The notes below the pieces were generated by a model. The model saw only the letters and a list, made by a program, of their open reading frames with translations. It made no database searches and was not told the DNA's origin. A stretch of 64,000 bases of DNA from assembly GCA_963706575.1 (NCBI GenBank), contig CAVPNL010000001.1, forward strand, positions 1 to 64,000. Reading direction: 5' to 3'. This DNA is from an uncultured delta proteobacterium. Its GTDB lineage: Bacteria > Desulfobacterota > Desulfobacteria > Desulfobacterales > JAHEIW01. The position numbers and the translations under genes were made by a program. Positions 1 through 14,068 of this stretch are shown here, piece by piece. Within the stretch, counting starts at the first letter, position 1. Each line of letters begins with the position of its first letter.

Positions 1-16
1 CTTTGATATGTTGGAG

Positions 17-30
17 CTGTACGACATAAA
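17..30. repeat. Left terminal inverted repeat of the dual-recombinase element
   Basis: Perfect 14-bp inverse of 2111-2124; a second 11-bp inverted pair CTGTTTTTTCT (33-43) / AGAAAAAACAG (2060-2070) lies subterminally. Confidence 0.9.
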
Positions 31-70
31 GTCTGTTTTTTCTATTAATATTAATTAGTTAGCTTCCATT

Positions 71-991
71 TTAATTAATCAAAATTTCTTCTTTGTCAAG
101 TCTTTTGTTTCCGACCGGGCTGTGGCGCTCGATCACTTTATCCATTGCCTGGTAGTAATCCCTTCGCACTTTCTGGTTCGACACACGGCAATACCGCTCG
201 GTTGTTGTGATGTAGGCGTGGCCCAAAAGGTCCTGGATGGTCACTAAATCCGCATCGGCATTGAGCATCTGGGTGGCCATGGTGTGGCGCAGCTGGTGGC
301 AGGTGACCTTAAAGCCGGCCTTTTTCGAGTAGTATTTCATACGGTGCTGGATGCCGCGAACGTTGAGCGGTTGGCCTCTAAAGCGGCCCTTGTTGACCAA
401 AAAAAGCCTTTTGGCCCGGGAGAAAGGCCTGACCTTCAGATAGGCCAAAAGCGCCTGATAGGCATCTTTGCTTAAATAAACCATCCGTTCTTTGGCGCCC
501 TTGCCATGGTAGACAAACACCTGGGCGCGTTTTAAATCCACAGAGGCAAGAGTCAACTTGGCCACCTCTTGCACCCTAAGGCCGCAGCGCAGCATCAGCT
601 TGAAGATGGCCAAATCCCTTGGATCATCGATCTGTGCAAAAAGCGTCCGCACCTGCTCATCTCGCAAAAAGCGCGGCAGTGGCTTGGACATGCGCAGTGT
701 ATCTCCGAGTTTCACCGGATTTTGCATCTTAAGTTGCTCCTCACAGATCAGGTAGTCATAGAAGCCGCGGATGCTGTCCAGGTAGCAGTTGATGGTCTTG
801 GGTTTCAGGCGCTTGGCCAACAGATCATCGATAAAGCCCACCAGCTTTTGGTGGGTTACCTTATCGATGGGCACATCCAGCCAAATGACAAACTGCTTCA
901 GTGTGCTCATGTAATTTCTGATGGTGTATTTAGAGAAGTTGCGCCTTTTTAACGATCTACGGTAGTTGATAATCGAGTCGGTAATGCCCAT
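71..991 (-). CDS. Tyrosine-type recombinase/integrase (XerC/D-like), second gene of pair
   Basis: Catalytic motifs RCGLRVQE, HGKG, HQLRH, LLGH, TERY intact; N-terminal SAM-like domain; ATG at 991 preceded by GGAG. Confidence 0.93.
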   Translation of the reverse strand: MGITDSIINYRRSLKRRNFSKYTIRNYMSTLKQFVIWLDVPIDKVTHQKLVGFIDDLLAKRLKPKTINCYLDSIRGFYDYLICEEQLKMQNPVKLGDTLRMSKPLPRFLRDEQVRTLFAQIDDPRDLAIFKLMLRCGLRVQEVAKLTLASVDLKRAQVFVYHGKGAKERMVYLSKDAYQALLAYLKVRPFSRAKRLFLVNKGRFRGQPLNVRGIQHRMKYYSKKAGFKVTCHQLRHTMATQMLNADADLVTIQDLLGHAYITTTERYCRVSNQKVRRDYYQAMDKVIERHSPVGNKRLDKEEILIN

Positions 992-2036
992 TGATCTCTC
1001 CTGCTTCAATGATGGTCATCGCCTGGTAATAAGCCTTGCGACGCGTGTTGTCGGTTAGCCGCGCATATCGGCGCGTCATCTCAATGCTTTTGTGACCCAA
1101 AAGCTCCTGCAGACATTGCAGCGGCATACCGGCATTTAACAGCTCACTGGCGTATGTGTGACGCAGGCAGTGAAGCGTGTAGCCCTTGTGGGCCAGACCG
1201 GTTTTGTCTATATAGCGTTTGAACATCGCACGGGCCGCTTGGTAGCAAAGCGGTCCAACATCATAGCCATAAAAGATAAATTTGCTCTGATATTTTCTTG
1301 TCTTTAACCATTTTTCCAAGGTGCCCACCGCATCAGCGCTAAGATAGACCACCCGGCCCACCCGATTTTTATGTGCTTCAAAGATCTGAACCAGTTGCTC
1401 GCGCAGATTGATATCCTTAACCCTGGTGCTTAAAAGCTCGCCGATACGCATGCCGGTGCGAAGAAGCGTTAGTATCAGCGCCCGATCCCGAGGCTTTTCT
1501 ATTGCCGCCAACAGCTGCTTAATATCCTCCGGATCAATGGCCCGCGGCAGGGCCTGGGGCACCCTGATGCGAAGCTTACGCTTGATCACATCCGCGCTGA
1601 TAACCTCGTGCTCAACTAAAAAATTTAAAAACGCATACAATCCCTTTAGCCGTCCATCCACCGAGTTTGGCGCCATACCACGATCTTGCTCATGTTCAAC
1701 AAAAGCGCTGATATGCTCTGGACCTGCTGCCGCCAACTGCTGACCGCCGCTTTGCTTAAAAAACTCTAAAAATAGCACGATAGTGGTTCCGCTGCTGCGA
1801 ATGGTGCTGGGCCGGCAGTTGTGCCGTAGCTGCCGGCAAAGGTAATCGCGCACCATATCGCTGCCACACAACCCTTCAGCGGATATTCGCCGCAGGGTGC
1901 GCTCGATCTGTTCATTAGATACATGATAGGCGGGGCGAAGAGATATTTTGGGAAAAATTGAAAGTTGAATCGCTTTGGGCTGGATCGCTGTGGGGCTGTA
2001 TGTGCTTTTTCCTGCAGACACATGCTCGAGGTTCAT
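957..2036 (-). CDS. Tyrosine-type recombinase/integrase, first gene of pair
   Basis: Motifs RTGMRIGE, HCLRH, LLGH, TRRY intact; AGGAGG RBS upstream of ATG 2036 (GTG 2039 alternative); overlaps downstream recombinase by 35 nt. Confidence 0.93.
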   Translation of the reverse strand: MNLEHVSAGKSTYSPTAIQPKAIQLSIFPKISLRPAYHVSNEQIERTLRRISAEGLCGSDMVRDYLCRQLRHNCRPSTIRSSGTTIVLFLEFFKQSGGQQLAAAGPEHISAFVEHEQDRGMAPNSVDGRLKGLYAFLNFLVEHEVISADVIKRKLRIRVPQALPRAIDPEDIKQLLAAIEKPRDRALILTLLRTGMRIGELLSTRVKDINLREQLVQIFEAHKNRVGRVVYLSADAVGTLEKWLKTRKYQSKFIFYGYDVGPLCYQAARAMFKRYIDKTGLAHKGYTLHCLRHTYASELLNAGMPLQCLQELLGHKSIEMTRRYARLTDNTRRKAYYQAMTIIEAGEINGHYRLDYQLP

Positions 2037-2074
2037 CACTACCTCCTTTCGCTTTTTGCAGAAAAAACAGGTAG

Positions 2075-2103
2075 ATAATGACCTCGATCGACTGTTTAGT
2101 CAA
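2075..2103 (-). promoter_or_regulatory. Putative sigma70 promoter for the recombinase pair
   Basis: Minus strand TTGACT-17 nt-CATTAT just inside the right IR. Confidence 0.45.
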
Positions 2104-2110
2104 TTATCAT

Positions 2111-2124
2111 TTTATGTCGTACAG
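2111..2124. repeat. Right terminal inverted repeat of the dual-recombinase element
   Basis: TTTATGTCGTACAG followed by GTTGGAG. Confidence 0.9.
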
Positions 2125-2482
2125 GTTGGAGTAATCGCAACTTTTGAACTGAAACTTGATACCACAAGATGTTGGATATGGCCAAAATAATTGAAAGCGT
2201 GGATTCAAAATGACAAACGACGCTTTCTAATTGATTGGTTTGAGTGAACATCGATAGCCGTAAAACTTCAGATTTATATAAATAAAACATACATTATGTA
2301 TTGTTGACTTTTTCAGCTTAGATTGGATTTATAAAAGATAATTAATACTAATTCGAGCCGGAGTACCTGAGGCTACACCTGTGTACATTCTAAATAATCT
2401 TCTTTGTCCTTGTTTAGGTTTTCCCTGACTTTTGATTGATTACCTACAATCGCTCTAAGCAATGGCTGACGGATACTTAAAG

Positions 2483-3658
2483 TTAACGGGCCTTTTCAAG
2501 ATTACTCGTAATAACGCTCAGAAGATCATTGATAAGCAACAGGAGATAGAACTCCTTTTGCTGCTCACGGTTACTAATTAGTCCAATACTTACACCGTAT
2601 TCAGGTAAGTACCAAATAAACGCAAAGTAACCAAGCGCGTTACCAGCATGTCCCCAAATTTCTAAGCCGTTGAAAAAACGAGGTGTATATCTCGTGACTC
2701 CAAAGCCATACCCGGCAAGGATAGGGCTACCATGCACGGGTGAATGAAAATCAAGCATTTGGTCGAGAGATCCCTTTTTGAGTACTCTACCCTCGTGAAA
2801 TAGAGCATGGGTCCACTTTGCCAGATCTTCTGAAGTTGAAAAAACTCCGCCGGCGGCCCAAAATAAGCTATAAAGAGCTGTTCTTGGGAAGACTGAAAAA
2901 TCGTCAAGAACTTTATCCCCATCGAGGTCAATCCAGCCGTGGGCAATATTTTCGGGAAGCACTTCCTCAACGGCAAAAAAAGTGTTGTCGAGATCCAGAG
3001 GATTCCAAAAGCGATTCCTGAGTTCAGTGGATAACTTTGATCCGGTTGCTTTATTGATAATCATTCCAAGCAGAATGTAGCCGGTGTTGGAATAGTGCCA
3101 GCCTGTCCCTTTGGGGAAATGTGGTTTGCGCACCAAGGTTATTAGTACCTCTTTGGGAGTCCAGAATCTCCCCGGGTCTTTAAGAATTGGGCGAATAGCT
3201 GAGGGGCCTTGAAGACTGTAGAGGCCACTGGTGTGGTTAAGTAGCTGTCGGATGGTAATTGTGTTGTCAATGTTTGGATAGTCCGGGAGCCATTTATGGA
3301 GCGGGTCATCCAAAGCGAGCAGGCCCTCTTCCACCAGTCTGAGAGTTAGCGCAGCCACGAAGTTCTTTGTAATGCTGCCAGCATCAAACACTGTATCCGG
3401 CTTTATTGGAGTTGTATCATGAGACACGCCACTTACGCCGACCCACGGTTTGTATCCTGGGACAATTACAGCGACTGAAATCCCCTTTCCGTTGTACTTT
3501 TTAAGACCATTAACCAGTACTTCTTGCATCTTCTTGGTAAATGGCAGTTCGGGTTGAGACTTTGGCTTTGCTGATACCGCAGGACTAACGGAGAATGCTG
3601 TCAAAGCCAAAACGGTACTCAACAACAAAACTCGTGTTAAAAGCTTATTGAAAGACAT
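2483..3658 (-). CDS. Secreted serine hydrolase, beta-lactamase/D-Ala-D-Ala carboxypeptidase family
   Basis: Signal peptide; GSITK (SxxK), LLNHTSG, HYSN, GHAG motifs. Confidence 0.9.
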   Translation of the reverse strand: MSFNKLLTRVLLLSTVLALTAFSVSPAVSAKPKSQPELPFTKKMQEVLVNGLKKYNGKGISVAVIVPGYKPWVGVSGVSHDTTPIKPDTVFDAGSITKNFVAALTLRLVEEGLLALDDPLHKWLPDYPNIDNTITIRQLLNHTSGLYSLQGPSAIRPILKDPGRFWTPKEVLITLVRKPHFPKGTGWHYSNTGYILLGMIINKATGSKLSTELRNRFWNPLDLDNTFFAVEEVLPENIAHGWIDLDGDKVLDDFSVFPRTALYSLFWAAGGVFSTSEDLAKWTHALFHEGRVLKKGSLDQMLDFHSPVHGSPILAGYGFGVTRYTPRFFNGLEIWGHAGNALGYFAFIWYLPEYGVSIGLISNREQQKEFYLLLLINDLLSVITSNLEKAR

Positions 3659-3927
3659 ATCTGTACCTCTTTATTGAAAAATATCAATAAATTGTTCAGA
3701 GTCAGCCTCAGAATTTAAAGAAACTTGTACCAACTGAAATATCCTAAAATTCCAGAATACTAATGCTATTGTTCAATATAGGGGTCAGTACAGAAACGAG
3801 CAATGCTTGCCGCTGTCTGCACTGATAACTGTCAAAAAAATAATGCAGCTTGCGGTCGATAGTCTTCAGACAGAAGAAATAAGGCTGGCACAACATCTGG
3901 TGGTCGTTCTTTTATGTTAAAATTACG

Positions 3928-3944
3928 GATACATTGAGAGTATC
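3928..3944 (+). repeat. Putative recombination site GATAC-ATTGAGA-GTATC
   Basis: Perfect 5-bp inverted arms around a 7-bp core that recurs in the same orientation at 4285, 6843, 7708, 10586, 10887, 12665. Confidence 0.65.
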
Positions 3945-4004
3945 ACCAAAACAAGGAACTTGTGATATTATCCCCATTTTCTGAGAACAGTATCTCAATA
4001 ATAG

Positions 4005-4169
4005 TTAACTTTTTTTTGAAGTTACCGTCTGAAAGGATGAAATTTGTTGCTTCAATTTTTTGGCTTTACACTTTGGGCAACTGTATTTTTTCTTTTCATA
4101 TTCGGAAATAGAAAGGACTATGCTAAAGGATTTTTTACATTTTTCACAGTAAAACTCATATGTGGGCAT
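4005..4169 (-). CDS. FmdB-family zinc ribbon protein
   Basis: MPTYEFYCEKC...CPKC; GGAGG RBS before ATG 4169. Confidence 0.88.
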   Translation of the reverse strand: MPTYEFYCEKCKKSFSIVLSISEYEKKKYSCPKCKAKKLKQQISSFQTVTSKKS

Positions 4170-4279
4170 GTTACACCTCCTTTTTTCAGGTGTTATACCA
4201 CCCAATAATGATGGTGATACGACATTTATGCTTGTATCAAATTATTTAATCACTGGCGAGCTCGCTACAATCACATGGT

Positions 4280-4333
4280 GATTAATTGAGAGAAACACAA
4301 CTATCGCAATTTTGCAGATACGTTCTGGATATA
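4280..4333 (+). repeat. Composite intergenic repeat (ATTGAGA core + GTTCTGG core), homologous to 12660-12723
   Basis: GATTAATTGAGAGAAACACAACTATC...CAGATACGTTCTGGATATA vs GATACATTGAGAAACAAACAACTATC...CAGATAGAATCTGGTTACA. Confidence 0.6.
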
Positions 4334-4378
4334 TGAACCTCACCATGCAACCAACCGTCTTTTCTAAGTTTTGTCATC

Positions 4379-4443
4379 TGTGATTAAAATCGAATATCGC
4401 AGGAATTTTCAGAATTGATATCTACCGAATTGTTGGAGTTATC
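4379..4443 (+). repeat. 65-bp composite repeat (AAATCGA core + GTTGGAG core), copy 1
   Basis: 56/65 identical by manual count to 8534-8598. Confidence 0.8.
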
Positions 4444-4453
4444 AAAGGATTCC

Positions 4454-5536
4454 CTACCTATTTAATAAATAGGATGCTAAATCATCAAATAGAAATGAAT
4501 CAACAGACCTATGCCGTTTAAAAGAGACAGATGGTTCTGGGTCAGGTTCTGCTTGAGTGACAAGTACAGCACTCACATCAGGTATAATTGCTATTCGCTG
4601 TCCTCCGTGGCCCATTGCAAATGGAATATCAATATGGTTTTCTATTCGTTTAATCCACCAAAGGAAGCCATAGCCATATGATTTATTCCAGCCTGAATAA
4701 TAAGTACCTATCATTCCGGTTCTTTCAATTATTGATGACTTAATCCATTCTGATGGTACGACCTGACTCCCATTAAAGAGTCCATTGTTCAAATAAAGAG
4801 TACCAAAGTTTACCATGTCTTGAGCTTTCAGAGACAATCCCCAACCGCCAATACAATATCCCTTTGGATCTTTTTCCCATTTGACTTTAGTAATGCCAAG
4901 GGGTGAAAATAGAACAGATTTTGCATAATCAAAGGTACTCATGCCGGTAGCCTTGGTGATCGTCGCTGATAAGAGATGAGTGTTAAAACTATTGTAGCTG
5001 AATTTTTTTCCAGGGGCTGCTCTAAACGGAAAATGAAGGATATGCTCTACCCAATCAGTCGATTTGTATAATTGCTGATAGGCCTGAGCGGTTTCCTCAA
5101 TGTTGAAACCTGATTTCATAGTTATCAGGTGCCTAATTCTAAGATCATATATTTTAGGATCTAACTCATCGGTGATGTATTCAGGGAAAAAATCAATGAT
5201 CTTTTGCTCTATGCTGTTTATATACCCATCCTTTATTGCGATACCCACAATGGCAGACAAAACACTTTTCGAAGCAGATCGGATATCATGAATTTGATCG
5301 GGACCGCCGCCATTGATATACTTTTCGATTATCAATTCATCATTTTTCAAAACTATCAGACTTTTTAAATAGGGCATTTCATCAGTCTTACGCAATATTT
5401 TGGAAAGATTGTCGGATTTAGTTACAATTTTGCTTAATGATTTGTCCGTTTCTGTTTGTCCGATGGTGCAACAATAAAGTGTGAAGCTAAAGGTAGTCAT
5501 TAAGAGAAAAAAAAGTTCTAAATTTAGCTTTTTCAT
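4454..5536 (-). CDS. Serine hydrolase, beta-lactamase class C-like (6-aminohexanoate-dimer hydrolase-like)
   Basis: RSASK (SxxK), HLITMKSG, FSYNS, YGYGFLWW, AMGHGGQ. Confidence 0.9.
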   Translation of the reverse strand: MKKLNLELFFLLMTTFSFTLYCCTIGQTETDKSLSKIVTKSDNLSKILRKTDEMPYLKSLIVLKNDELIIEKYINGGGPDQIHDIRSASKSVLSAIVGIAIKDGYINSIEQKIIDFFPEYITDELDPKIYDLRIRHLITMKSGFNIEETAQAYQQLYKSTDWVEHILHFPFRAAPGKKFSYNSFNTHLLSATITKATGMSTFDYAKSVLFSPLGITKVKWEKDPKGYCIGGWGLSLKAQDMVNFGTLYLNNGLFNGSQVVPSEWIKSSIIERTGMIGTYYSGWNKSYGYGFLWWIKRIENHIDIPFAMGHGGQRIAIIPDVSAVLVTQAEPDPEPSVSFKRHRSVDSFLFDDLASYLLNR

Positions 5537-5550
5537 CCTACCTGCCCAAT

Positions 5551-6810
5551 TTAGATAATTGAAGGCAATTCGATCTTTCCTGAATAGTATTGCTTTATTT
5601 TTTCAGATATTTTTAATAATTGCGTCTGTGGATGTATGTGTGGGACTTCTGCGGTTGAAACTAACAAAATTGCGCTTTTTTTATTTAGATCCGCAACAAC
5701 TTGGGCATTAAAAGCGAATCCTCTGCCGCCGTGCCATATTAATTTGTGTCCATTCTCATCGGTTTTGGTAAACCACCCCAGCGCATAATTAAAACCAAGG
5801 TCGATATCAATATCCCAAGTCGCCAAATCAGGAGGCGTATGTAACTTTTGCAATGAGCTTGGTTTTATCAAACTACCTTGGTTTACCGGGTCTGAATCCA
5901 GATGCATTAAAATGGATTTTGCCCAATCCGCCATTGTCATGTGCATATGACCAGTAGGTGATAAAAATTTTGGACAATTCGCTTGGTAAGCCACAAAGGA
6001 TTTTGTTGACTTATCCCAGTAATGTCCCAAAGGTTGCTTGTTTGGCTCTAAAGCTGTCGGCGGTCCATACCCTGCGGAGGAAATAGATAAAGGCCTAAAT
6101 ATTTTTTCTGTCCAAAGATCCTCAATTGCTCTTCCTGTGGCTTTCTCCATCATTGCTCCTGTCAGAATATAGCCACTGTTGGAGTAATGGACCATTTGAC
6201 CTGGTGGTGCAAATAATTGATGTTGAACCGTCTTTTCTACATACTGGCATCGTAATTGTTCGGGTGCCGACCCGCGCGCTTCATCGAACTCATAGTCAAT
6301 CAGCCAGGTTGTTTTACCACCTTTGAAATTTTTAGGTAGTCCGGCGCGATGAGACAGTAATTGATATAATGTGATATGTTCATATTCTGGAAGCATTTCC
6401 AGGTCAGGAAATACGTTGCGAATTGTTGTCTGCCAACTCAAAACGCCTTCATCCACCAATACTGCAGCCAGGCTGGCAGTAAATGATTTTGTACAAGATC
6501 CGATTAGAAATTTATCATTTACTGTTAACCAATTATCCGTTCCAATTTCTCGGACGCCTACAGCAGCAGCGGAATGAAGTTTACCATCAACGATGATAGC
6601 TGCTGCCAATCCGGGTAGTCTTTCTTCAAGCCTGATAGAATTAAGCAATTCTGCAAGATCAGTATCACCAGATTCCTTTGTGACAGGTGCAGGAATAGCA
6701 TCATAAGGTGGTGACTTTTCGCATGCCAACATAAATACAATACATACAAATCCCAATAGAATCGAAGTTAATCGCCTATTAATATGGATGGCCATAAAAA
6801 TTTTTTTCAT
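5551..6810 (-). CDS. Serine hydrolase, beta-lactamase family, probable lipoprotein
   Basis: MLAC lipobox-like; GSCTK, LLSHRAG, HYSN, WHGG. Confidence 0.9.
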   Translation of the reverse strand: MKKIFMAIHINRRLTSILLGFVCIVFMLACEKSPPYDAIPAPVTKESGDTDLAELLNSIRLEERLPGLAAAIIVDGKLHSAAAVGVREIGTDNWLTVNDKFLIGSCTKSFTASLAAVLVDEGVLSWQTTIRNVFPDLEMLPEYEHITLYQLLSHRAGLPKNFKGGKTTWLIDYEFDEARGSAPEQLRCQYVEKTVQHQLFAPPGQMVHYSNSGYILTGAMMEKATGRAIEDLWTEKIFRPLSISSAGYGPPTALEPNKQPLGHYWDKSTKSFVAYQANCPKFLSPTGHMHMTMADWAKSILMHLDSDPVNQGSLIKPSSLQKLHTPPDLATWDIDIDLGFNYALGWFTKTDENGHKLIWHGGRGFAFNAQVVADLNKKSAILLVSTAEVPHIHPQTQLLKISEKIKQYYSGKIELPSII

Positions 6811-6837
6811 AGTATTTCAGCCCGGATCCGGAATGCA

Positions 6838-6984
6838 GATACATTGAGAATACATGAAATATCGTAAAATTGCAGATATCGCAATCTGATATCATAGTCT
6901 TTTAGGGATGGTAAGTTCTGCATTGATGTTAGAGATATCGGCAGTTTTTTGGTTTGAAAATATTTTAGATTTCCATGAGATATC
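6838..6984 (+). repeat. Composite intergenic repeat (ATTGAGA, GTTAGAG and CCATGAG cores)
   Basis: GATAC-ATTGAGA-ATACA (6838), TTGAT-GTTAGAG-ATATC (6923), GATTT-CCATGAG-ATATC (6968); aligns with 7703-7800 and 10882-10977. Confidence 0.6.
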
Positions 6985-7107
6985 TGCAACTATTTTCGAC
7001 TGTCCCTTCACAGACAGAATCTAATAAAAATCTATTAAATCGGATACCACAACATAAAGGGGATAAGCAAAACTTCAGAATGTTAAAATTGTTATAGACA
7101 ATACTGG

Positions 7108-7560
7108 TTATGTATTTATGTCCTCAATACGTTTTATGTTCTCAACAATCTCTGCCGGAAGTGAAGTCTTTTGGTTTTTCCTGTAATCGAAGCAGACAAT
7201 CATACCGTCGCCTTCCGCCGCCACACAATTGTGTTTTTTGCTGACAACTCGATAGAGCATTAAAAAACTGTCCTCCTCTATATCGGTCGAACGTGCGCCG
7301 ATCTGAACCATGTCTGGGAACGATAAGGCTTTTTTAAATCGGCAGCTTGTTTTCGACAAAATGGGCCCGACACCGATGTTTTCCTTTAATTTTATAAACT
7401 CTATTTTTTCAAAATAGGCGATACGAGCACTTTCGAAATACCGGAAATATACAATATTGTTAACATGGCCAAATGCATCCATTTCACCCCAGGCAACCGG
7501 CACTTCAATGGTAACAGGAAAATTGGTTAAAAAAGATTTACTAGTGTTATCCGCTATCAT
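7108..7560 (-). CDS. Acyl-CoA thioesterase (4HBT/YbgC hot-dog family)
   Basis: VAWGEMDAFGHVNNIVYFRYFESAR. Confidence 0.92.
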   Translation of the reverse strand: MIADNTSKSFLTNFPVTIEVPVAWGEMDAFGHVNNIVYFRYFESARIAYFEKIEFIKLKENIGVGPILSKTSCRFKKALSFPDMVQIGARSTDIEEDSFLMLYRVVSKKHNCVAAEGDGMIVCFDYRKNQKTSLPAEIVENIKRIEDINT

Positions 7561-7702
7561 TTCAAATCCTCAAGTCTAAAGTTAACAAGCTATGTGTAAA
7601 ATGGAATCACAAAAGAAATTTGAAAAAGTAATGTGAAGCCCCATTGCTCATGAACAAATCGATGGGCTTTTTCAAATTAGATTCACGATTCTAATAACTA
7701 CT

Positions 7703-7800
7703 GATATATTGAGAATACCTGAAAAAGACCAAAAGAGCAGATATGCGAATGTATCACAAGTTTTTAAAGGATTCAAAAGTGCTGCTATGTTGAAGAGTAA
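7703..7800 (+). repeat. ~100-bp composite repeat (ATTGAGA core ... GTTGAAG core)
   Basis: 7703-7766 is 56/64 identical by manual count to 10882-10945. Confidence 0.8.
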
Positions 7801-7805
7801 TCTGG

Positions 7806-8342
7806 TTACGCCTTTGAAGCTCCGAATCCCCCTGCCAACCAAAAAAACAAAGCGAAAATGACGGTCTGAACGATCCAGCCGATGATACAGACACCGACTG
7901 CTCGCCAAGTACTTTTATAATCAAGCGCCTGCCTGACAGCAATGACCATCGCCACCAGCATCCAGATACCAACGATGAAATTAAGAATAGCCCCCAACAT
8001 GGGGATAATTGCCAAAATACGCAGGACTCCCGGAGAACTGGAGAATCCGATGGTGCGGAGCAATTCCCCATAATCTGCTCTTGTTTGTGGTTCAGGTAAC
8101 AGTCTGGTTCCAATAAAATATGTAAGAAACGCCCAAATAAACCATCCCAGCAAGGCAGCTATGGTCCCGAAAATAAGTCCATTTATCCCTGTAGCGCTGA
8201 TAGTTCCGATTCCTGCAGCAACACTGGAGAGAATGACCACTCCCATGGCCTGCCCCATGGCCCCCTTATCCGCTTCGACCTCTTCATAAAGGGCTACATC
8301 CAGCTTTGCTGCCCTTAACATCCGATCTGTAAATGATGCCAT
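7806..8342 (-). CDS. YIP1-family membrane protein
   Basis: MASFTDRMLRAAKLDVALYEEVEAD..., five hydrophobic segments, AVRQALD. Confidence 0.8.
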   Translation of the reverse strand: MASFTDRMLRAAKLDVALYEEVEADKGAMGQAMGVVILSSVAAGIGTISATGINGLIFGTIAALLGWFIWAFLTYFIGTRLLPEPQTRADYGELLRTIGFSSSPGVLRILAIIPMLGAILNFIVGIWMLVAMVIAVRQALDYKSTWRAVGVCIIGWIVQTVIFALFFWLAGGFGASKA

Positions 8343-8533
8343 GATTGCCCCCTTTTGCAATTCAGATTAAAATCTCAAGATTTCATTTTAAATCTTTTTG
8401 CATGTTAACATGGTCTTGTCAAAGCGAAAGTCCCATTCTTGTCATAGAAAAAATCCCCCTCCAATAAGGGGAAAATGCGGCTCTAAGGCGATAAAAAGGG
8501 CAAACCCATAGCCTCAGATTCACCCTTTTGAGT

Positions 8534-8598
8534 TGTGATTAAAATTGAATATCCAAACAATTTTCGGAATTGATATCTACCGATATGTTGGAGGTATC
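8534..8598 (+). repeat. 65-bp composite repeat (AAATTGA core + GTTGGAG core), copy 2
   Basis: GATTA-AAATTGA-ATATC and GATAT-GTTGGAG-GTATC; homologous to 4379-4443 and to the site split by the recombinase element. Confidence 0.8.
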
Positions 8599-8930
8599 GC
8601 AGGTTTTAGGCTGCAATGAAACCTGTGTTAAATAGCAGATCACACAACTATCGCTTGCTTTCAGTACCCCCTACATCTTGTGGTGGCTTAAAAACGAAAA
8701 GCGCGGTATCGAAGCTGTTTCCACGCTTTTTATCACTAATTGCACCCGAGCTGACGCGAAAAGGTGACAATGGATTGGTAGAGATAAAATAAGAAACACA
8801 TTAACGTGAGCCCGTGCTGAGACCCTGATCCATTATAGAAGCAGACATTTCAGTACTTCTCCTTTTTTCACATCCGAAATATTGCGTCTTCAATTGTACG
8901 TGTAACGGGCAAATTCATGTTTTAGAAGTA

Positions 8931-10559
8931 TTATTTTTTCAACTCTTCTTTAACGGCACTCGCTAATGTTTCCAAAATAAAGGGTTTCTTTATATATTTC
9001 CCCGCTCCCAGTTCCTGAGCAGCTTTGACGTCTTTTGTCTCGGCAAACCCGCTGGCAATAATCGCTTTTTGGTTAGGATGTAATTCAATGATCCTTTCAT
9101 ATGTTTCGCGACCGTTCATTCCCGGAAACATAATCATATCAAGCACGATCAAATCTACCGAATTAGTCTTTAGATATCTAACCGCCTCCTCACCGCTAGA
9201 AACAGCGTTAGCCGAATAACCAAGTTTAATCAGCAACGCACATGTGATTTCCCTTTGAAGCTCCTCGTCATCGACCACAAGAATCGTCTCATCATTTCCA
9301 GCGTAATGTTCCCATGATGCCTGCTCCACAGTAGCAGCCACTTCATCTCTGGTTATAGGATAGTATAGTTCAAAGATAGTTCCGTCTTCATTACTCAATA
9401 CATTTACGTAACCACCATGATCTTGAACGGTGTTCCATACAACCGATAAGCCTAATCCCGTACCACTTCGACCCATAATCTTTTTACTATAAAAAGGCTC
9501 AAAAATTCTATCCAGATCTTCTGCAGATAATCCTGAACCATCGTCGTAAACTGTTAGCACGGCATATTCACCCTGGCGCACGTCCTCGTACCCTTTTAAG
9601 GGTTTATCCAAGTACCGATTCGTTGTCGATATGACAACGGTACCACTGTCTTGAATTGCTTGGGTCGCATTCGTTACTAAGTTTAATAAACTCTTATTTA
9701 TATGAGATGATGAACATTCTGTATTCAAGAGGTTGGGATCAAGTTGAAATTTGAAATTTATAGTGGGATTAACTGTTTCGAGTTTTTTGTGTTCAGCAGA
9801 ACGCATATATCCCTTGATTATGGAGTTTATGTTTAAGATTTCTTTCCCTGTTGCCGCACCTCTGGCTACAGCTAATAAATCAGAGACGATAGCAGCAGCG
9901 CGATTGCCGGAATCCCTGATAATTCCAATTGGTTTTCGTAATGGGCTATTTTTGGGTAAATCCATTAAAATCAGCTCAGGATAACCTACAATCCCTGATA
10001 AAATGTTATTCAAGTCATGCGCAATGCCTGCAGCCATAAACCCGATGGCTTCCATCCGTTTGGCTCTAGAGAGTTTTTGTTCGCTTTCTCCTAATGCCTC
10101 CTCTGCCCGCTTGCGCTTGGTAATGTCACGGATGTTGCATTGAATCACCTTCTTGTTTTTGACCATATAGACATTACTGACGAACTCTACGGCAATATGG
10201 CGCCCGTCCTCTGTTTCAAGCGGTAAATGCTCGTAGCGAATATATTCTTTTTTCTGTAACTCCCGAAAAGCTGATTGGCTTGCCTCAATGTCTTTGAAAG
10301 GACCGATTTCCCAAAGTTCCTTACCTATGAATGTTTCGTTAGCATAATCCAGCATTCCTAATAGAAATGGATTGACGTCGGTTATCTTCCCGGTGTCGGC
10401 ATCAAGGATTAATATTCCATCTTGAGCTGTTTCAAAAAGTCGTCGGTAGCGACTTTCGGACTCTTCCAGCGCCTCCTCTGCCCGCTTGCGCTCAAAAGCA
10501 TCTTTCTTTAATTCCTGAATCCTCTGTTCCAATCCTTCATAGGTCGGTTTTTTAATCAT
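8931..10559 (-). CDS. PAS-domain hybrid sensor histidine kinase/response regulator
   Basis: PAS domain; AHDLNN H-box; N/G boxes; receiver ILVVDD...LDMIM; GGAGGA RBS before ATG 10559. Confidence 0.93.
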   Translation of the reverse strand: MIKKPTYEGLEQRIQELKKDAFERKRAEEALEESESRYRRLFETAQDGILILDADTGKITDVNPFLLGMLDYANETFIGKELWEIGPFKDIEASQSAFRELQKKEYIRYEHLPLETEDGRHIAVEFVSNVYMVKNKKVIQCNIRDITKRKRAEEALGESEQKLSRAKRMEAIGFMAAGIAHDLNNILSGIVGYPELILMDLPKNSPLRKPIGIIRDSGNRAAAIVSDLLAVARGAATGKEILNINSIIKGYMRSAEHKKLETVNPTINFKFQLDPNLLNTECSSSHINKSLLNLVTNATQAIQDSGTVVISTTNRYLDKPLKGYEDVRQGEYAVLTVYDDGSGLSAEDLDRIFEPFYSKKIMGRSGTGLGLSVVWNTVQDHGGYVNVLSNEDGTIFELYYPITRDEVAATVEQASWEHYAGNDETILVVDDEELQREITCALLIKLGYSANAVSSGEEAVRYLKTNSVDLIVLDMIMFPGMNGRETYERIIELHPNQKAIIASGFAETKDVKAAQELGAGKYIKKPFILETLASAVKEELKK

Positions 10560-10585
10560 TAAAAAATCCTCCAACTACCAGAAAT

Positions 10586-10630
10586 ATTGAGAATTGCGAC
10601 AAGCTTACGTTTAAAACCCTCTTCTGCCAT
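10586..10630 (-). pseudogene. 5' stub of an adenylate/guanylate-cyclase-type gene (MAEEGFKRKLVAIL), cut at an ATTGAGA core
   Basis: Manual translation from ATG 10630 matches the recalled (K/R)RKLAAILSAD N-terminus of class III cyclase proteins; similarity stops at the core 10586-10592. Confidence 0.6.
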
Positions 10631-10881
10631 AGTGGCATCCGCCTCTTTTAGGTTTCAAACAGAGGAGCTTAGCAGGTGGATTATTCGAAGGAGAGCAGCA
10701 AATCAGATGTAAAATACAGCTCAATGGTGAAAATAGAGAACCGTACCGGGTTAGGTGGAAGAGGGGAATCAGAAATAGTTTATATGTATTTATACCAAAT
10801 TAAAGGGATTTAGTCAATCATAATCAAGGATTCCGGCAGGTTGTGATACCTTACCAGAAAACCAAATATAACTGAACCTGT

Positions 10882-10977
10882 GATTTATTGAGAATACCTG
10901 AAAAGTACCAAAAGTGCAGATATGCGAAACTATCACAGTTTTTTAGTAATTAAAAATGCTAATATCTTGGAGATATT
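10882..10977 (+). repeat. ~100-bp composite repeat (ATTGAGA core ... CTTGGAG core)
   Basis: Homologous to 7703-7800 and 6838-6939. Confidence 0.8.
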
Positions 10978-11047
10978 TCAAGACATAGGGCTCTTGGAAA
11001 ATTTTTGCCTTGGCAGCATATTATCACTACTATGAAAAAAAATCAGA

Positions 11048-11422
11048 TTATTGCTTCGGGGCCAGCATTAGCATAATTATTGATTTGCCGGACTGACCCG
11101 TACTGATGTTAACAACCGTATTGTTCGATCCTTTTTCACCTATAAGACCTGAAAGCCCCTGTTGCTTGGTTTCGGCCGAGATTGTCCAGCCGTTAGCTGC
11201 CAAGTTCTTTTTATAAAACTCGAGTATCTTTTCCAGGTTGTCGCCAGATTCCATCCCAACGATTATATTTCCAGGAACCTGCACGGTCTGGGTGATTGTG
11301 GCATCGGGATAAGGTGCAGAGACTTCCATCATCTCTTGGGGATATACCATCCCAGACAAGGCCACATTCATAGAGAGGGCAAAAAACACTAAAACAGCAC
11401 AAATTATGATATTTTTTGACAT
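11048..11422 (-). CDS. Hypothetical exported protein
   Basis: Signal-peptide-like N-terminus; GGAGG RBS; YPDA...FYKKNL..NGW motif seen in small periplasmic proteins. Confidence 0.75.
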   Translation of the reverse strand: MSKNIIICAVLVFFALSMNVALSGMVYPQEMMEVSAPYPDATITQTVQVPGNIIVGMESGDNLEKILEFYKKNLAANGWTISAETKQQGLSGLIGEKGSNNTVVNISTGQSGKSIIMLMLAPKQ

Positions 11423-11677
11423 ATTGACCTCCTATTCGAAGTTAATTGTTTGCCCTTATTCCGCCTGCCAACGTTGCGGGCTTCAACTGACATTCCTCAG
11501 TTTTATGGCTTTAAAAGCCTTGCTACACATCGAGAGATTTCTGAAAGATCGGTTTAATGTCAAGGATCGGTATGCGCTCCAGCGCCTCCGGTGGACGCAC
11601 CCTGTACCGCTTTCATGCCCTTGAATTTGCATAGACCAATCGTAAAAAAGCCAAGTACAATCTTATTCGGGCCTGAA

Positions 11678-12634
11678 CTAACTCTCAAAGGGGTCCTTCA
11701 GCTTGGCATCCCAGGCGGTTACGATGTTTTGTTTGCGCAAATTTACCTGAAGTTGAAAAACATCGGGTCTTGCGTAATGGCCTGGCGTGTCGAGATCGTA
11801 CTTTCCTTCCGGGATCTTGTTCAGATCCAGGTCTGCACGAAGAATGGTAGGGCCGTTATAATCGGGACCTGCCAAAACTTCTCCCAGGGGCCCCACGATA
11901 CAGCTGCCGCCGCGCATTAAAACGTTTTCAGGATTATCCCCTTGAATCGCGTCGAATTTCTCCGGACAATCCTTCCGTGTCAGATATTGACAACTACTCA
12001 GCACAAAACAACGACCCTCCAGGGCAATATGCTGCATGGAAGGCAACCAGACATCTCGATCGTCTGCTGTCGGAGCGCAGTAAATCTCAATGCCCTGAGA
12101 ATACATGTGCATCCGAAGCAATGGCATATAGTTTTCCCAACAAATAACTGCACCGATACGCCCGATTGGTGTGTCGACCACTTGCATTGTCGATCCATCG
12201 CCAAAGCCCCATACCAATCTTTCCATAGCTGTCGGCATCAGTTTTCGATGCTTGCCCAGTAGCTTGCCTCCCGGAGAAAAAAAGCATACCGTGCAATACA
12301 AAGTGCCCAATTCTCTTTCAATCACCCCGATTACCAGATAGATCTTATTTTCTTTGGCGATCGTTCCCAAAAGGTCTGTGGCCTGGCTCGGAATTTCAAC
12401 AGCGCTTTCAAAATACCGGCGGAAATCTTCTCGGCCCTCGGGAAAGCGCATTCCAATGCGAGCCCCAAAATCCAGTCCCTTGGGATAGGCAGAAACAAAT
12501 GCCTCTGGAAATAGCACCAATTCGGCCTCTTGACTCGCAGCCTCTTTTACTAAGTCTCGGACCTTCTCGATTGTGGCCTCTCGATCGAATACAATCGGAT
12601 TATCTTGTACCACTGCAGCACGAACGATACTCAT
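11678..12634 (-). CDS. Nitrilase (carbon-nitrogen hydrolase family)
   Basis: E-K-C triad: LFPEAF, HRKLMPT, ICWENY; C-terminal GHYARPDVF. Confidence 0.92.
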   Translation of the reverse strand: MSIVRAAVVQDNPIVFDREATIEKVRDLVKEAASQEAELVLFPEAFVSAYPKGLDFGARIGMRFPEGREDFRRYFESAVEIPSQATDLLGTIAKENKIYLVIGVIERELGTLYCTVCFFSPGGKLLGKHRKLMPTAMERLVWGFGDGSTMQVVDTPIGRIGAVICWENYMPLLRMHMYSQGIEIYCAPTADDRDVWLPSMQHIALEGRCFVLSSCQYLTRKDCPEKFDAIQGDNPENVLMRGGSCIVGPLGEVLAGPDYNGPTILRADLDLNKIPEGKYDLDTPGHYARPDVFQLQVNLRKQNIVTAWDAKLKDPFES

Positions 12635-12659
12635 TTTGATCTCCTATCGAAATGTTAAA

Positions 12660-12723
12660 GATACATTGAGAAACAAACAACTATCATTTTAACCGAGAGT
12701 ATTTCAGATAGAATCTGGTTACA
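12660..12723 (+). repeat. Right-most composite site of the array (ATTGAGA and AATCTGG cores)
   Basis: GATAC-ATTGAGA and GATAG-AATCTGG-TTAC; homologous to 4280-4333. Confidence 0.6.
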
Positions 12724-12910
12724 TGATATCCCCGGGGGAATCAACCGGTAATTCAGATCCAGGTGAACTCAGGAGTCTAAAGGTTTGATGCTTGGATGCG
12801 GGTTTCAGGGGTATGGATATTGAAAGGCAGTCAAAGGAGAAAAAAAGATAGGAAATCTGGAACAGGATCGATGTTCGTCGGACCGACAGGCTATTTGTGC
12901 GCTTTTGCTG

Positions 12911-13219
12911 TTAAGGCTCAACGGGATAATGGTATTTGACACCAACGCCAAATGAATATTGGGAATCTTGCGCAAGCAATTTCTGCCGCCATCTAACCTG
13001 AGCGCGATACATGTCCGGACTGGAATCATAAGGGGATTTTTCTATTCCGATGTAAATTTCAGTACCGGGCAGCGGCGCATAATCGGATTCAAAATACATG
13101 CCGCCGCGACTGTAATTGTGCATTTTCGCATCGAAGTGTGCTCCGGCAGGAAAATTTTCGAGCAGGATGTTGGCCGTATGCTTCAAACGCGTGGCGTCGC
13201 GTTGCTCAGAATGAGCCAT
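12911..13219 (-). CDS. PilZ domain protein
   Basis: EQRDATR (RxxxR) and NYSRGG (D/NxSxxG) c-di-GMP motifs. Confidence 0.85.
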   Translation of the reverse strand: MAHSEQRDATRLKHTANILLENFPAGAHFDAKMHNYSRGGMYFESDYAPLPGTEIYIGIEKSPYDSSPDMYRAQVRWRQKLLAQDSQYSFGVGVKYHYPVEP

Positions 13220-13408
13220 TTATACCCCCTTCATAGACCTGTAGGCAGAAATAAACGTGTTGCGTCAGGAGAATGGTGTCAGTTGGCACCGAAGATTATA
13301 GCGGCATAAATAAACCAATGCCGCTGCAATGTCAAAGAAAAAAACAGGCCCGGGAAAAATAAATTTATTTTTAATAAGTTTAAATAGTTATGTTAATTTC
13401 GACTCATG

Positions 13409-13891
13409 TTATTGTTTATAGCCGATTTTTCTCAGAAATTCTTTGCGGACGTTGATATCCGCTTCATTTTCGATGCCTTTAGATTTAAATCCGTCAATAA
13501 CACCCAGGATTCCCCGTCCCAGATCAGTTTCAGCCACAATCACCTCCACTGGATTTGCCGTGGCGCAAAAGATGCGGCAGACTTCAGGCACTGCTTTAAT
13601 GGCGTTTAAGACGTTGATTGGAAAACAATCTTTCATGAATACAATAAAACTGTGGCCGGCTGAGAGATTGAGGGCGTTTTTCTTAGCCAGTTCCAAAAGC
13701 TCATCATCCGTACCTGCATGCCGGATCAGGCATTTATCAGAGGCTTCACAGAAGGCCAGAGCAAACTTTGCCATGGGGACGGTTGTTACCATAATCTCGT
13801 AAATATCTTCAACGGTTTTGATGAAGTGGGACTGGCCTAAGATAAAGTTGAGTTCACCCGGGTTTTCGATTTTAATGGTTGTGATTTCCAT
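13409..13891 (-). CDS. Adenosine-specific kinase family protein (DUF355)
   Basis: [38 protein letters not shown]. Confidence 0.85.
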
Positions 13892-14068
13892 AAGACCCTC
13901 CATACGACATATTTTCTGGCAATGCGCCTATAATCTGTCTCAATCCGCCTCCGGCGGACTAAGTGCCCATAGCTTAGATATGTAATCCCGCTTCAGCGAG
14001 ACCATGAACCCTGAACCACATTCCTGAGATAGGTTGTAGTGAAAAAAACCTTTTAAGTGAAAAAAACC

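Follow-up and report, generated by a model that had tools for sequence, protein, structure and literature searches.

The window examined here is a stretch of 64,000 nucleotides (positions 1 to 64,000 of contig CAVPNL010000001.1, assembly GCA_963706575.1) from an uncultured member of the Desulfobacterales; the genome that carries it is called G000 below, and the contig whose base 1 is window position 1 is called C1. At the very start of the window lies a 2,108-bp element (positions 17-2124) with 14-bp inverted ends and two intact tyrosine recombinase genes, and a copy of the 7-mer GTTGGAG stands on either side of it (Table 1). On the left, GATAT, GTTGGAG and the perfect 14-bp repeat follow one another; on the right, the second GTTGGAG runs into TAATC-GCAACTTTT, and TAATCGCAACTTTT lies directly 3' of that 7-mer. 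The two open reading frames (ORFs), both Phage_integrase, fill positions 71-2039 of the element, and their products, IntA and IntB, are 30% identical. A reading of the window from its sequence alone had placed the element exactly in the GTTGGAG core of one site of an array, and had noted that removing the element and one core restores GATAT-GTTGGAG-TAATC with the sequence beyond it. The sequence does read so, and the intact sites named for comparison, at 8582 (GATAT-GTTGGAG-GTATC) and 4427 (GAATT-GTTGGAG-TTATC), were found as quoted.

A second copy in the same genome (G000:C12:208281-210388) differs from the window copy at 8 of 2,108 bases. It is bounded by the same GTTGGAG direct repeat, has GATAT on the intB side and AAATC on the intA side, and lies within a full composite site of the kind described below; together with the duplicated core, this second copy in the same type of site bears out the placement in the core. 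All 8 differences fall in window positions 31-338, and thus a mosaic at the contig end is possible. It could also be argued that the window junction as a whole is an assembly artefact, since its left flank has only 16 bases and it is near that end that the two copies differ. The C12 copy shows the same geometry with extensive flanking sequence to its left and right, and independent assemblies show the same type of junction, which makes an artefact extremely improbable. The junction is confirmed as real, and its first description as correct.

Searching with IntA finds 69 loci on genome contigs, and 11 matches in 9 of 61 relatives. Relatives of the element with both ends are mostly 2.03-2.38 kb long and share the same two genes and the 14-bp end repeat, with the consensus CTATACGTAACAAA; the hosts of these two-recombinase units are mainly Desulfobacterota and Nitrospirota. 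The flanking 7-mers are equal on both sides in 23 of the 36 genomic loci with both ends, a set that includes both G000 copies and one duplicated insertion. They are unequal in the remaining 13; within multicopy genomes the 7-mer on the intB side is constant and that on the intA side variable. A metagenome scan with the element end, which does not presuppose the core, gives at least 118 loci. Among the matches listed, a perfect 7-bp repeat is present in 27 of the 28 metagenomic loci with both ends, and the 99 distinct intA-side flanks carry CTTGCCA (46), CTCCAAC (16; the window core reversed), CTTCCCA (7), CATCTAC (4) or one of 19 other 7-mers (26 flanks).

The catalytic set R-K-H-R-H-Y is kept in nearly all members of the family, each residue being present in 47-48 of 48 IntA and 44-45 of 45 IntB sequences. 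With this set, several occupied sites and a duplicated overlap, the element is a tyrosine-recombinase mobile element in the broad sense. A quick tree gives starred clades for both IntA and host Xer, and it places the IntA and IntB clades apart from host Xer; the putative recognition helix differs between IntA and IntB. Neither protein reaches an NCBIfam cut-off, and a protein atlas search returns only generic Phage_integrase clusters. In a plasmid collection all IntA matches are below 60% identity (best rows 25-31%), and among viral contigs five matches to the site pattern include none that passes the site profile, with one distant recombinase 3 kb off and no IntB relative.

Remnants of other family members are also found in G000 (C18:69293-69338, C18:89256-89545, C12:228089-228280, C4:~297290 and C4:350439), some of which keep an end beside an ATAGCCG-type or GTTGGAG core. 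A group of distant elements (L032, L039-L041, L047, L050, L063 and L071) has a different repeated palindrome as its target, with GGACA-type arms and the core TGTTGTA or GAGCGTA; this palindrome is perhaps a second family of host sites.

The first reading had proposed that the flanks of homologous insertions be compared with the site consensus, on the view that insertions at random sequences would speak against it. The comparison was made, and the insertions are not at random sequences: among the matches listed, 41 of 96 distinct metagenomic flanks have GATW exactly five bases before the core, as predicted, and offsets 6-10 yield 0-1. The genomic set agrees, with GAY at the same offset in 28 of 87 flanks. 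A target-arm matrix built solely from the 96 metagenomic arms among the matches listed detects 64 arm-7-arm sites in G000, and 35 of these are within 250 bp of host repeats that span 0.47% of the genome. Other spacers fare worse, with 1 of 18 sites near host repeats for a spacer of 5, 18 of 43 for 6, 2 of 13 for 8 and 3 of 16 for 9. GTTGGAG occurs 396 times in G000, 23 times within composite sites, and on this matrix the C12 target ranks first among 395 GTTGGAG positions. The end of the element itself scores -3.9, compared with about 9 for occupied arms.

Further out, 15 of 22 metagenomic flanks on the intB side carry a phased second arm, compared with 1.7 on average and at most 6 in 1000 shuffles; on the intA side the count is 21 of 95. 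Both counts are among the matches listed and use offsets partly picked after inspection. Insertion is thus mostly oriented. The positional count superseded a strict accessory sub-site matrix, which matched 2 of 21 intB-side flanks because spacing varies. An intB flank is available for 10 distinct GTTGGAG-core copies; 6 of them fit the site profile of G000, 3 of these weakly (<10 bits).

The host site is composite. It consists of TGTGATAT-N7-ATATCACA, about 25 further bases and then GATAT-GTTGGAG-NWATC, and extra upstream sub-sites are frequent; the best spacer length is 7 bp, and one matrix describes both arms. A matrix scan of G000 gives 41 matches against 2 in the reversed genome, and a profile scan at E <= 0.01 gives 47 against 0, with clusters on several contigs. 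The largest clusters are at C4:266681-308724 (12 profile matches) and C4:350391-360679 (5), all on one strand. Neighboring sites within 16 kb of each other are co-oriented in 26 of 26 pairs; 37 of 42 core-side genes terminate at the site, 32 of 42 genes on the opposite side begin away from it, and the genes between sites have diverse accessory functions (104 of 216 ORFs scanned). The further conserved junction cores ATTGAGA, CATCTAC, GTTTACA and ATAGCCG are also flanking 7-mers of element variants. A strict site pattern, which gave 0 matches in the reversed control of the 61-genome search, is present in 18 of 24 members of the family and in 24 of 301 genomes of the order. Rfam has no match in window positions 1-14000. 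Many reads and contigs of other organisms match the sub-sites at window 4285-4320, diverging just before the ATTGAGA core and ending in GATAT-type arms.

The same core is entered by other mobile DNA. An IS1182-type element (Pfam DUF772/DDE_Tnp_1_6) splits it after GTTGG in three places, at C1:182576 and on contigs C6 and C8, and a further copy is fragmentary. A group II intron (approximately C4:301232-303087) splits it after the first G, and related introns begin 3 bases past the core in three relatives. The host repeat is a probable recombination site, given that mobile elements of three unrelated kinds share its core as a target; in the consulted parts of two papers, known recombination sites are described as attracting convergent elements of this sort (PMC3001079, PMC10132070). 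At C4:~360480-360600 there is also a short non-coding unit with IS1182-type ends inside an ATTGAGA core.

The repeats might instead have nothing to do with crossover: they could bind proteins, act in regulation or be degraded ends of some other mobile element, and the two-recombinase element would simply be drawn to the best arm-plus-core match. The gene starts on the long-arm side would suit a promoter-linked motif, but the bias toward gene 3' ends is stronger. In addition, of 89 alignments of one junction with another, 59 stop between +5 and +14 counted from the start of the core, among them some with lengths of 565, 788 and 1,386 bases; such paralogous homology, ending where it does, argues against this alternative, although the endpoint is partly by construction because the conserved site stops there. 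Orphan ends of a Y1 (RAYT-like) transposase element were considered and rejected: none of the six PF01797 (Y1_Tnp) matches in G000 adjoins a site, the nearest being about 3.4 kb away, and the blank Rfam result points the same way. We regard this alternative as decidedly unlikely. Most likely, the host repeat is the site at which crossover occurs in a gene-module system that is distinct from the element and belongs to this bacterial family, and the evidence points to a junction system that is not an integron and that attracts several kinds of mobile DNA.

Several modules can be viewed in the window itself (Table 1). Three genes of the PF00144 serine hydrolase (beta-lactamase) family occupy adjacent modules at 2483-6810, and a fourth lies in the C1:176-184 kb cluster. 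The Yip1 unit at 7796-8593 recurs in the relative G005 with 86% identity from core to core and with different sequence past both cores. In 19 of the 20 relatives in which moaA was matched, none of the window's eight module genes has a counterpart at that locus, many of the contigs being short. Synteny with G004, G007 and G020 involves both the end of contig C8 (345000-359986) and the start of C1 (window 1-13900) and suggests that the two are neighbors; where their modules lie, at a point of gene convergence, relatives hold a conserved operon. The C8 sites face the other way, and therefore modules appear to be piled up from both sides of this point. In another sulfate-reducer relative, a gene of the sulphur oxygenase reductase family (PF07682) is found between two sites (L117:8504-9463).

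Table 1. Features at the start of the window, in window coordinates
Feature	Position	Strand	Remarks
Long (accessory-side) arm of host site, visible end	1-9	+	GATAT at 5-9; contig start
7-bp core GTTGGAG, intB side	10-16	+	Presumed element-carried copy; intB-side 7-mer constant in multicopy relatives
Terminal inverted repeat, intB end	17-30	+	14 bp
Subterminal 11-bp repeat	33-43	+	Inverted partner of 2060-2070; present in many relatives too
intB, Xer-like tyrosine recombinase	71-1009	-	312 aa; catalytic residues intact
intA, Xer-like tyrosine recombinase	957-2039	-	360 aa; overlaps intB; catalytic residues intact
Subterminal 11-bp repeat, intA end	2060-2070	+
Sigma70-like promoter match facing intA	2075-2103	-	Consensus match only; region has 4, against 3.3 in shuffles
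Terminal inverted repeat, intA end	2111-2124	+	14 bp
7-bp core GTTGGAG, intA side	2125-2131	+	Presumed target-derived copy
Short arm of host site	2132-2145	+	Rank 2 of 395 GTTGGAG-adjacent right arms; matrix from metagenomic insertions only
Module gene	2483-3658	-	PF00144 serine hydrolase family
Upstream sub-sites of the 4427 junction	4280-4330	+	Second core type, ATTGAGA, at 4285-4291
Intact composite host site	4375-4451	+	Core 4432-4438
Two further module genes	4454-6810	-	PF00144; first stops 16 bases from core
Composite host site	7734-7808	+	Variant core GTTGAAG at 7789-7795
Core-to-core module	7796-8593	-	One Yip1-domain gene (7806-8360)
Intact composite host site	8529-8608	+	Core 8587-8593
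Degenerate composite host site	10911-10980	+	Last detected in cluster

These features can be joined in a mechanism in which the element would be an autonomous integrative element of insertion-sequence size, acting as a site hunter. Tyrosine recombinases exchange an overlap between two bound arms, and recombination of a circle joined end-core-end with an arm-core-arm target gives the kind of duplication seen here. By this chemistry, the element would exit as a circle with the joint end-GTTGGAG-end, and would integrate at matching 7-mers set between AAnTnnnGATW-like arms; being the strand-exchange region, the 7-mer would be duplicated. The two enzymes may divide the work, one recognising the element ends and its partner the target arms. 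We infer two enzymes with two specificities from the score of the element end on the target matrix and from the differing recognition helices. The host site would consist of one arm-7-arm core flanked on one side by accessory arm pairs in phase; it would lie at the 3' ends of genes, in runs of the same orientation, and would normally be worked by a separate enzyme rather than by the element's pair. The element could gain harmless and abundant intergenic landing places, with variants carrying 7-mers of which several match conserved host cores.

For the relation between element and array, strict sites and IntA matches (E <= 1e-70) were scored across the 61 relatives. Fifteen of the 20 genomes with strict sites have no IntA match; they include G004 and G007 (97% complete) as well as the single-contig G023, with 7-9 strict sites each. 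In five site-bearing, IntA-free genomes, 30 of 42 recombinase matches were fetched, and all show Xer-level identity only. This speaks against the element as the resident recombinase of the array. Nor is it one of the array's modules, given its distinct ends and the duplication of the core. The sequence-only reading had left two options, a parasite specialised on the array's sites or a self-mobile cassette carrying the array's own recombinases. The cassette is disfavoured by the element's distinct ends, which are not the arms of the array, and by the 15 site-bearing genomes without IntA. The parasite is favoured by the second copy, by many homologous insertions in arm-7-arm sites and by two unrelated mobile elements in the same core; specialization on this array alone is too restricted a view, as the sites are genome-wide and composite and insertions use other 7-mers and also lie outside composite sites. 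We consider it probable, with some reserve, that the element is a site-hunting parasite and not the array's resident recombinase.

An alternative is that the element family is a visiting recombinase of the array: the target-reading subunit would also join host site with host site, modules would move only while an element is present, and these enzymes would shape the host sites. All host sub-sites fit the family's target-arm matrix and its 7-bp spacer, five host cores (GTTGGAG and the four others above) are flanking 7-mers of element variants, and end remnants of other variants lie at such cores in G000. Nor does G000, which is 92% complete, offer another candidate enzyme. No integron integrase is found among its 10 tyrosine recombinase matches, two of which score 113 and 75 on TIGR02249 (cut-off 265) while the other eight are XerC/D-type, fragments or fusions by size and Pfam; a serine resolvase was rejected as the array enzyme, there being no PF00239 match in G000. 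Among the 301 genomes of the order, 8 have both sites and element, against about 2.3 expected, 16 have sites only and 21 have IntB only. On the other side, G004, G007 and G023 hold their sites with no IntA match, the fetched recombinases of five such genomes are at Xer level only, and the elements are widespread in lineages without the host site (21 of 29 IntB genomes). On balance we hold a visiting recombinase to be unlikely.

The host sites could also be dif-like and be recombined by host XerC/XerD, as pdif modules are in Acinetobacter, with the element exploiting them; this would be compatible with a parasite. XerC- or XerD-type genes are the sole full-length tyrosine recombinases common to the examined site-bearing genomes, and the dif of G000 (C2:141705-141732, at a GC-skew switch and in single copy in most relatives) has TGATAAGTT in common with some sites, its arms scoring 4.0 and 6.5 on the target matrix. 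Scores of 9-10 are reached by the best host arms, however, and the sites are co-oriented and have accessory repeats; IntA and IntB also form clades apart from host Xer in the quick tree. A pdif site has an XerC arm, a 6-bp spacer and an XerD arm. In the host site the optimal spacer is 7 bp and both arms are alike, fitting one matrix; membership in pdif was rejected, and the likeness to dif is partial. Taken together, a dif-like system appears quite unlikely. Of other recombinase loci, the one adjoining a site in G007 is a 174-aa fragment beside tRNA-like genes, and at L126:7426-8628 a partial Phage_integrase domain is fused to GntR and FCD by methylamine methyltransferase genes, with a similar match in G014.

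Several points qualify or weigh against the reading as a site-hunting parasite of a separate module system. The window copy, 16 bases from the contig start, shows its left arm for 9 bases only. Four public runs (reads and contigs), inspected over window 1-4600, gave patchy coverage with DNA of other organisms, left this strain's element uncovered and showed neither a circle joint nor an empty allele, a result that speaks neither way. The phased intB-side arm is weak in distant genomic relatives (5 of 30, a count reached by 47 of 1000 shuffles), and 4 of the 10 GTTGGAG-core copies have no composite match on the intB side (L300, L018, L164 and L241); since relatives also carry other 7-bp cores, the targeting is a strong preference and not a rule. 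The excess of genomes with both site and element also fits a closer partnership, in a count that scored only 7 candidates per genome and in which related genomes are not independent. Most element-free genomes are fragmented assemblies, prone to losing repeats. Finally, the Yip1 gene is present in 7 other relatives without flanking sites, and the case for module mobility is a single clean one, in two species.

A wider proposal would be that Desulfobacterales carry an undescribed cassette platform, distinct from integrons and from pdif. Its composite arm-7-arm junctions would have only a few conserved cores and would lack an integrase of their own; passing two-recombinase elements, each variant with a 7-bp key to one core, would both parasitise the junctions and provide the enzyme that shuffles the modules. 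We offer this tentatively, as a somewhat unlikely possibility. The literature searched (mostly open-access, without supplements) held no description of the element family or the host site, and novelty is provisional.

In the consulted text of the 2023 SE paper, tyrosine-recombinase transposons form five groups, none with just two ordinary recombinases (PMC10214605), and the parts consulted of PMC8138268, PMC3414803 and PMC5737581 contain no such two-recombinase unit. According to the portions consulted of PMC10214605 and PMC3414803, Tn554, SEs, GInts and RIT elements resemble the present element in that they lack transfer genes, have two or more tyrosine recombinases, bear repeats at their ends and are specific in their targets. 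SEs and Tn554 have a carried 6-mer at one end and the target's 6-mer at the other, in the same partial texts; the imperfect 7-mers of relatives here may reflect a similar arrangement. The present element differs from all four, as they are described there, in having two ordinary recombinases (360 and 312 aa), 2.0-2.4 kb, no cargo and a 7-bp core, without TnpC, Tfp, Srap, GinC/D or a third recombinase, and its family is hosted mainly by Desulfobacterota and Nitrospirota. It is not a RIT element, which needs three adjacent recombinase genes where two lie between the ends here and in relatives; the terminal inverted repeats of RIT elements are given as about 34 bp (PMC10214605, as consulted), compared with 14-bp terminal and separate 11-bp subterminal repeats. 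Nor does it belong with Tn554, SEs or GInts, which combine one large and one ordinary recombinase with TnpC, Srap or GinD (and Tfp or GinC); a strand-biased circular intermediate is a further hallmark of those three. The division of labor in multi-recombinase elements, on which this element bears, is listed as unresolved for RIT, GInt and Tn554 in the sections consulted of that 2023 paper (PMC10214605). Within 2.1 kb it offers a complete, testable recombination system: two enzymes, the element ends, the arms of the target and a 7-bp core that can be exchanged and has many variants in nature. A compact integrase pair whose target is partly set by a carried 7-mer could serve genome engineering.

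IS1111-attC elements are site hunters on attC, and the present element had been likened to them. An attC site is a single-strand hairpin with paired R and L boxes. Eight strands of the host site were folded (without an attC covariance model), with z from +0.29 to -2.42 and no common long hairpin; attC-type folding was therefore rejected, and the likeness holds as a functional analogy but not as a structural one. Other site hunters, group IIC-attC introns (PMC3001079) and ISAjo2/IS1202 at pdif and dif (PMC10132070), likewise insert in one orientation in or beside the sites of module systems, to judge from the excerpts consulted. All these site hunters use either a ribozyme with reverse transcriptase or a DDE or DEDD transposase, whereas tyrosine recombinases and a duplicated core are found here, at a target that is neither attC nor pdif. 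Helicobacter TnPZ/ICEHptfs with XerT (PMC2731543) shares an Xer-like recombinase and a fixed 7-bp direct repeat that is single at empty sites; it differs in being large, with type IV secretion genes and one recombinase, and the portion of that description consulted mentions no composite host repeat.

The host array can be compared with integron cassette arrays and CALINs. All have co-oriented sites after gene stops, small accessory genes, no nearby integrase, and introns and insertion sequences as parasites. Unlike these, the host array has no shared long hairpin and no integron integrase in G000; it has symmetric arm-7-arm sub-sites with accessory repeats and several core types, and it is spread over many contigs. 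The host array may offer sulfate reducers that are abundant in sediments a way to gain accessory genes, one that would escape screens for integrons and pdif. What is new here is the link between a two-recombinase element and an undescribed, cassette-like junction system.

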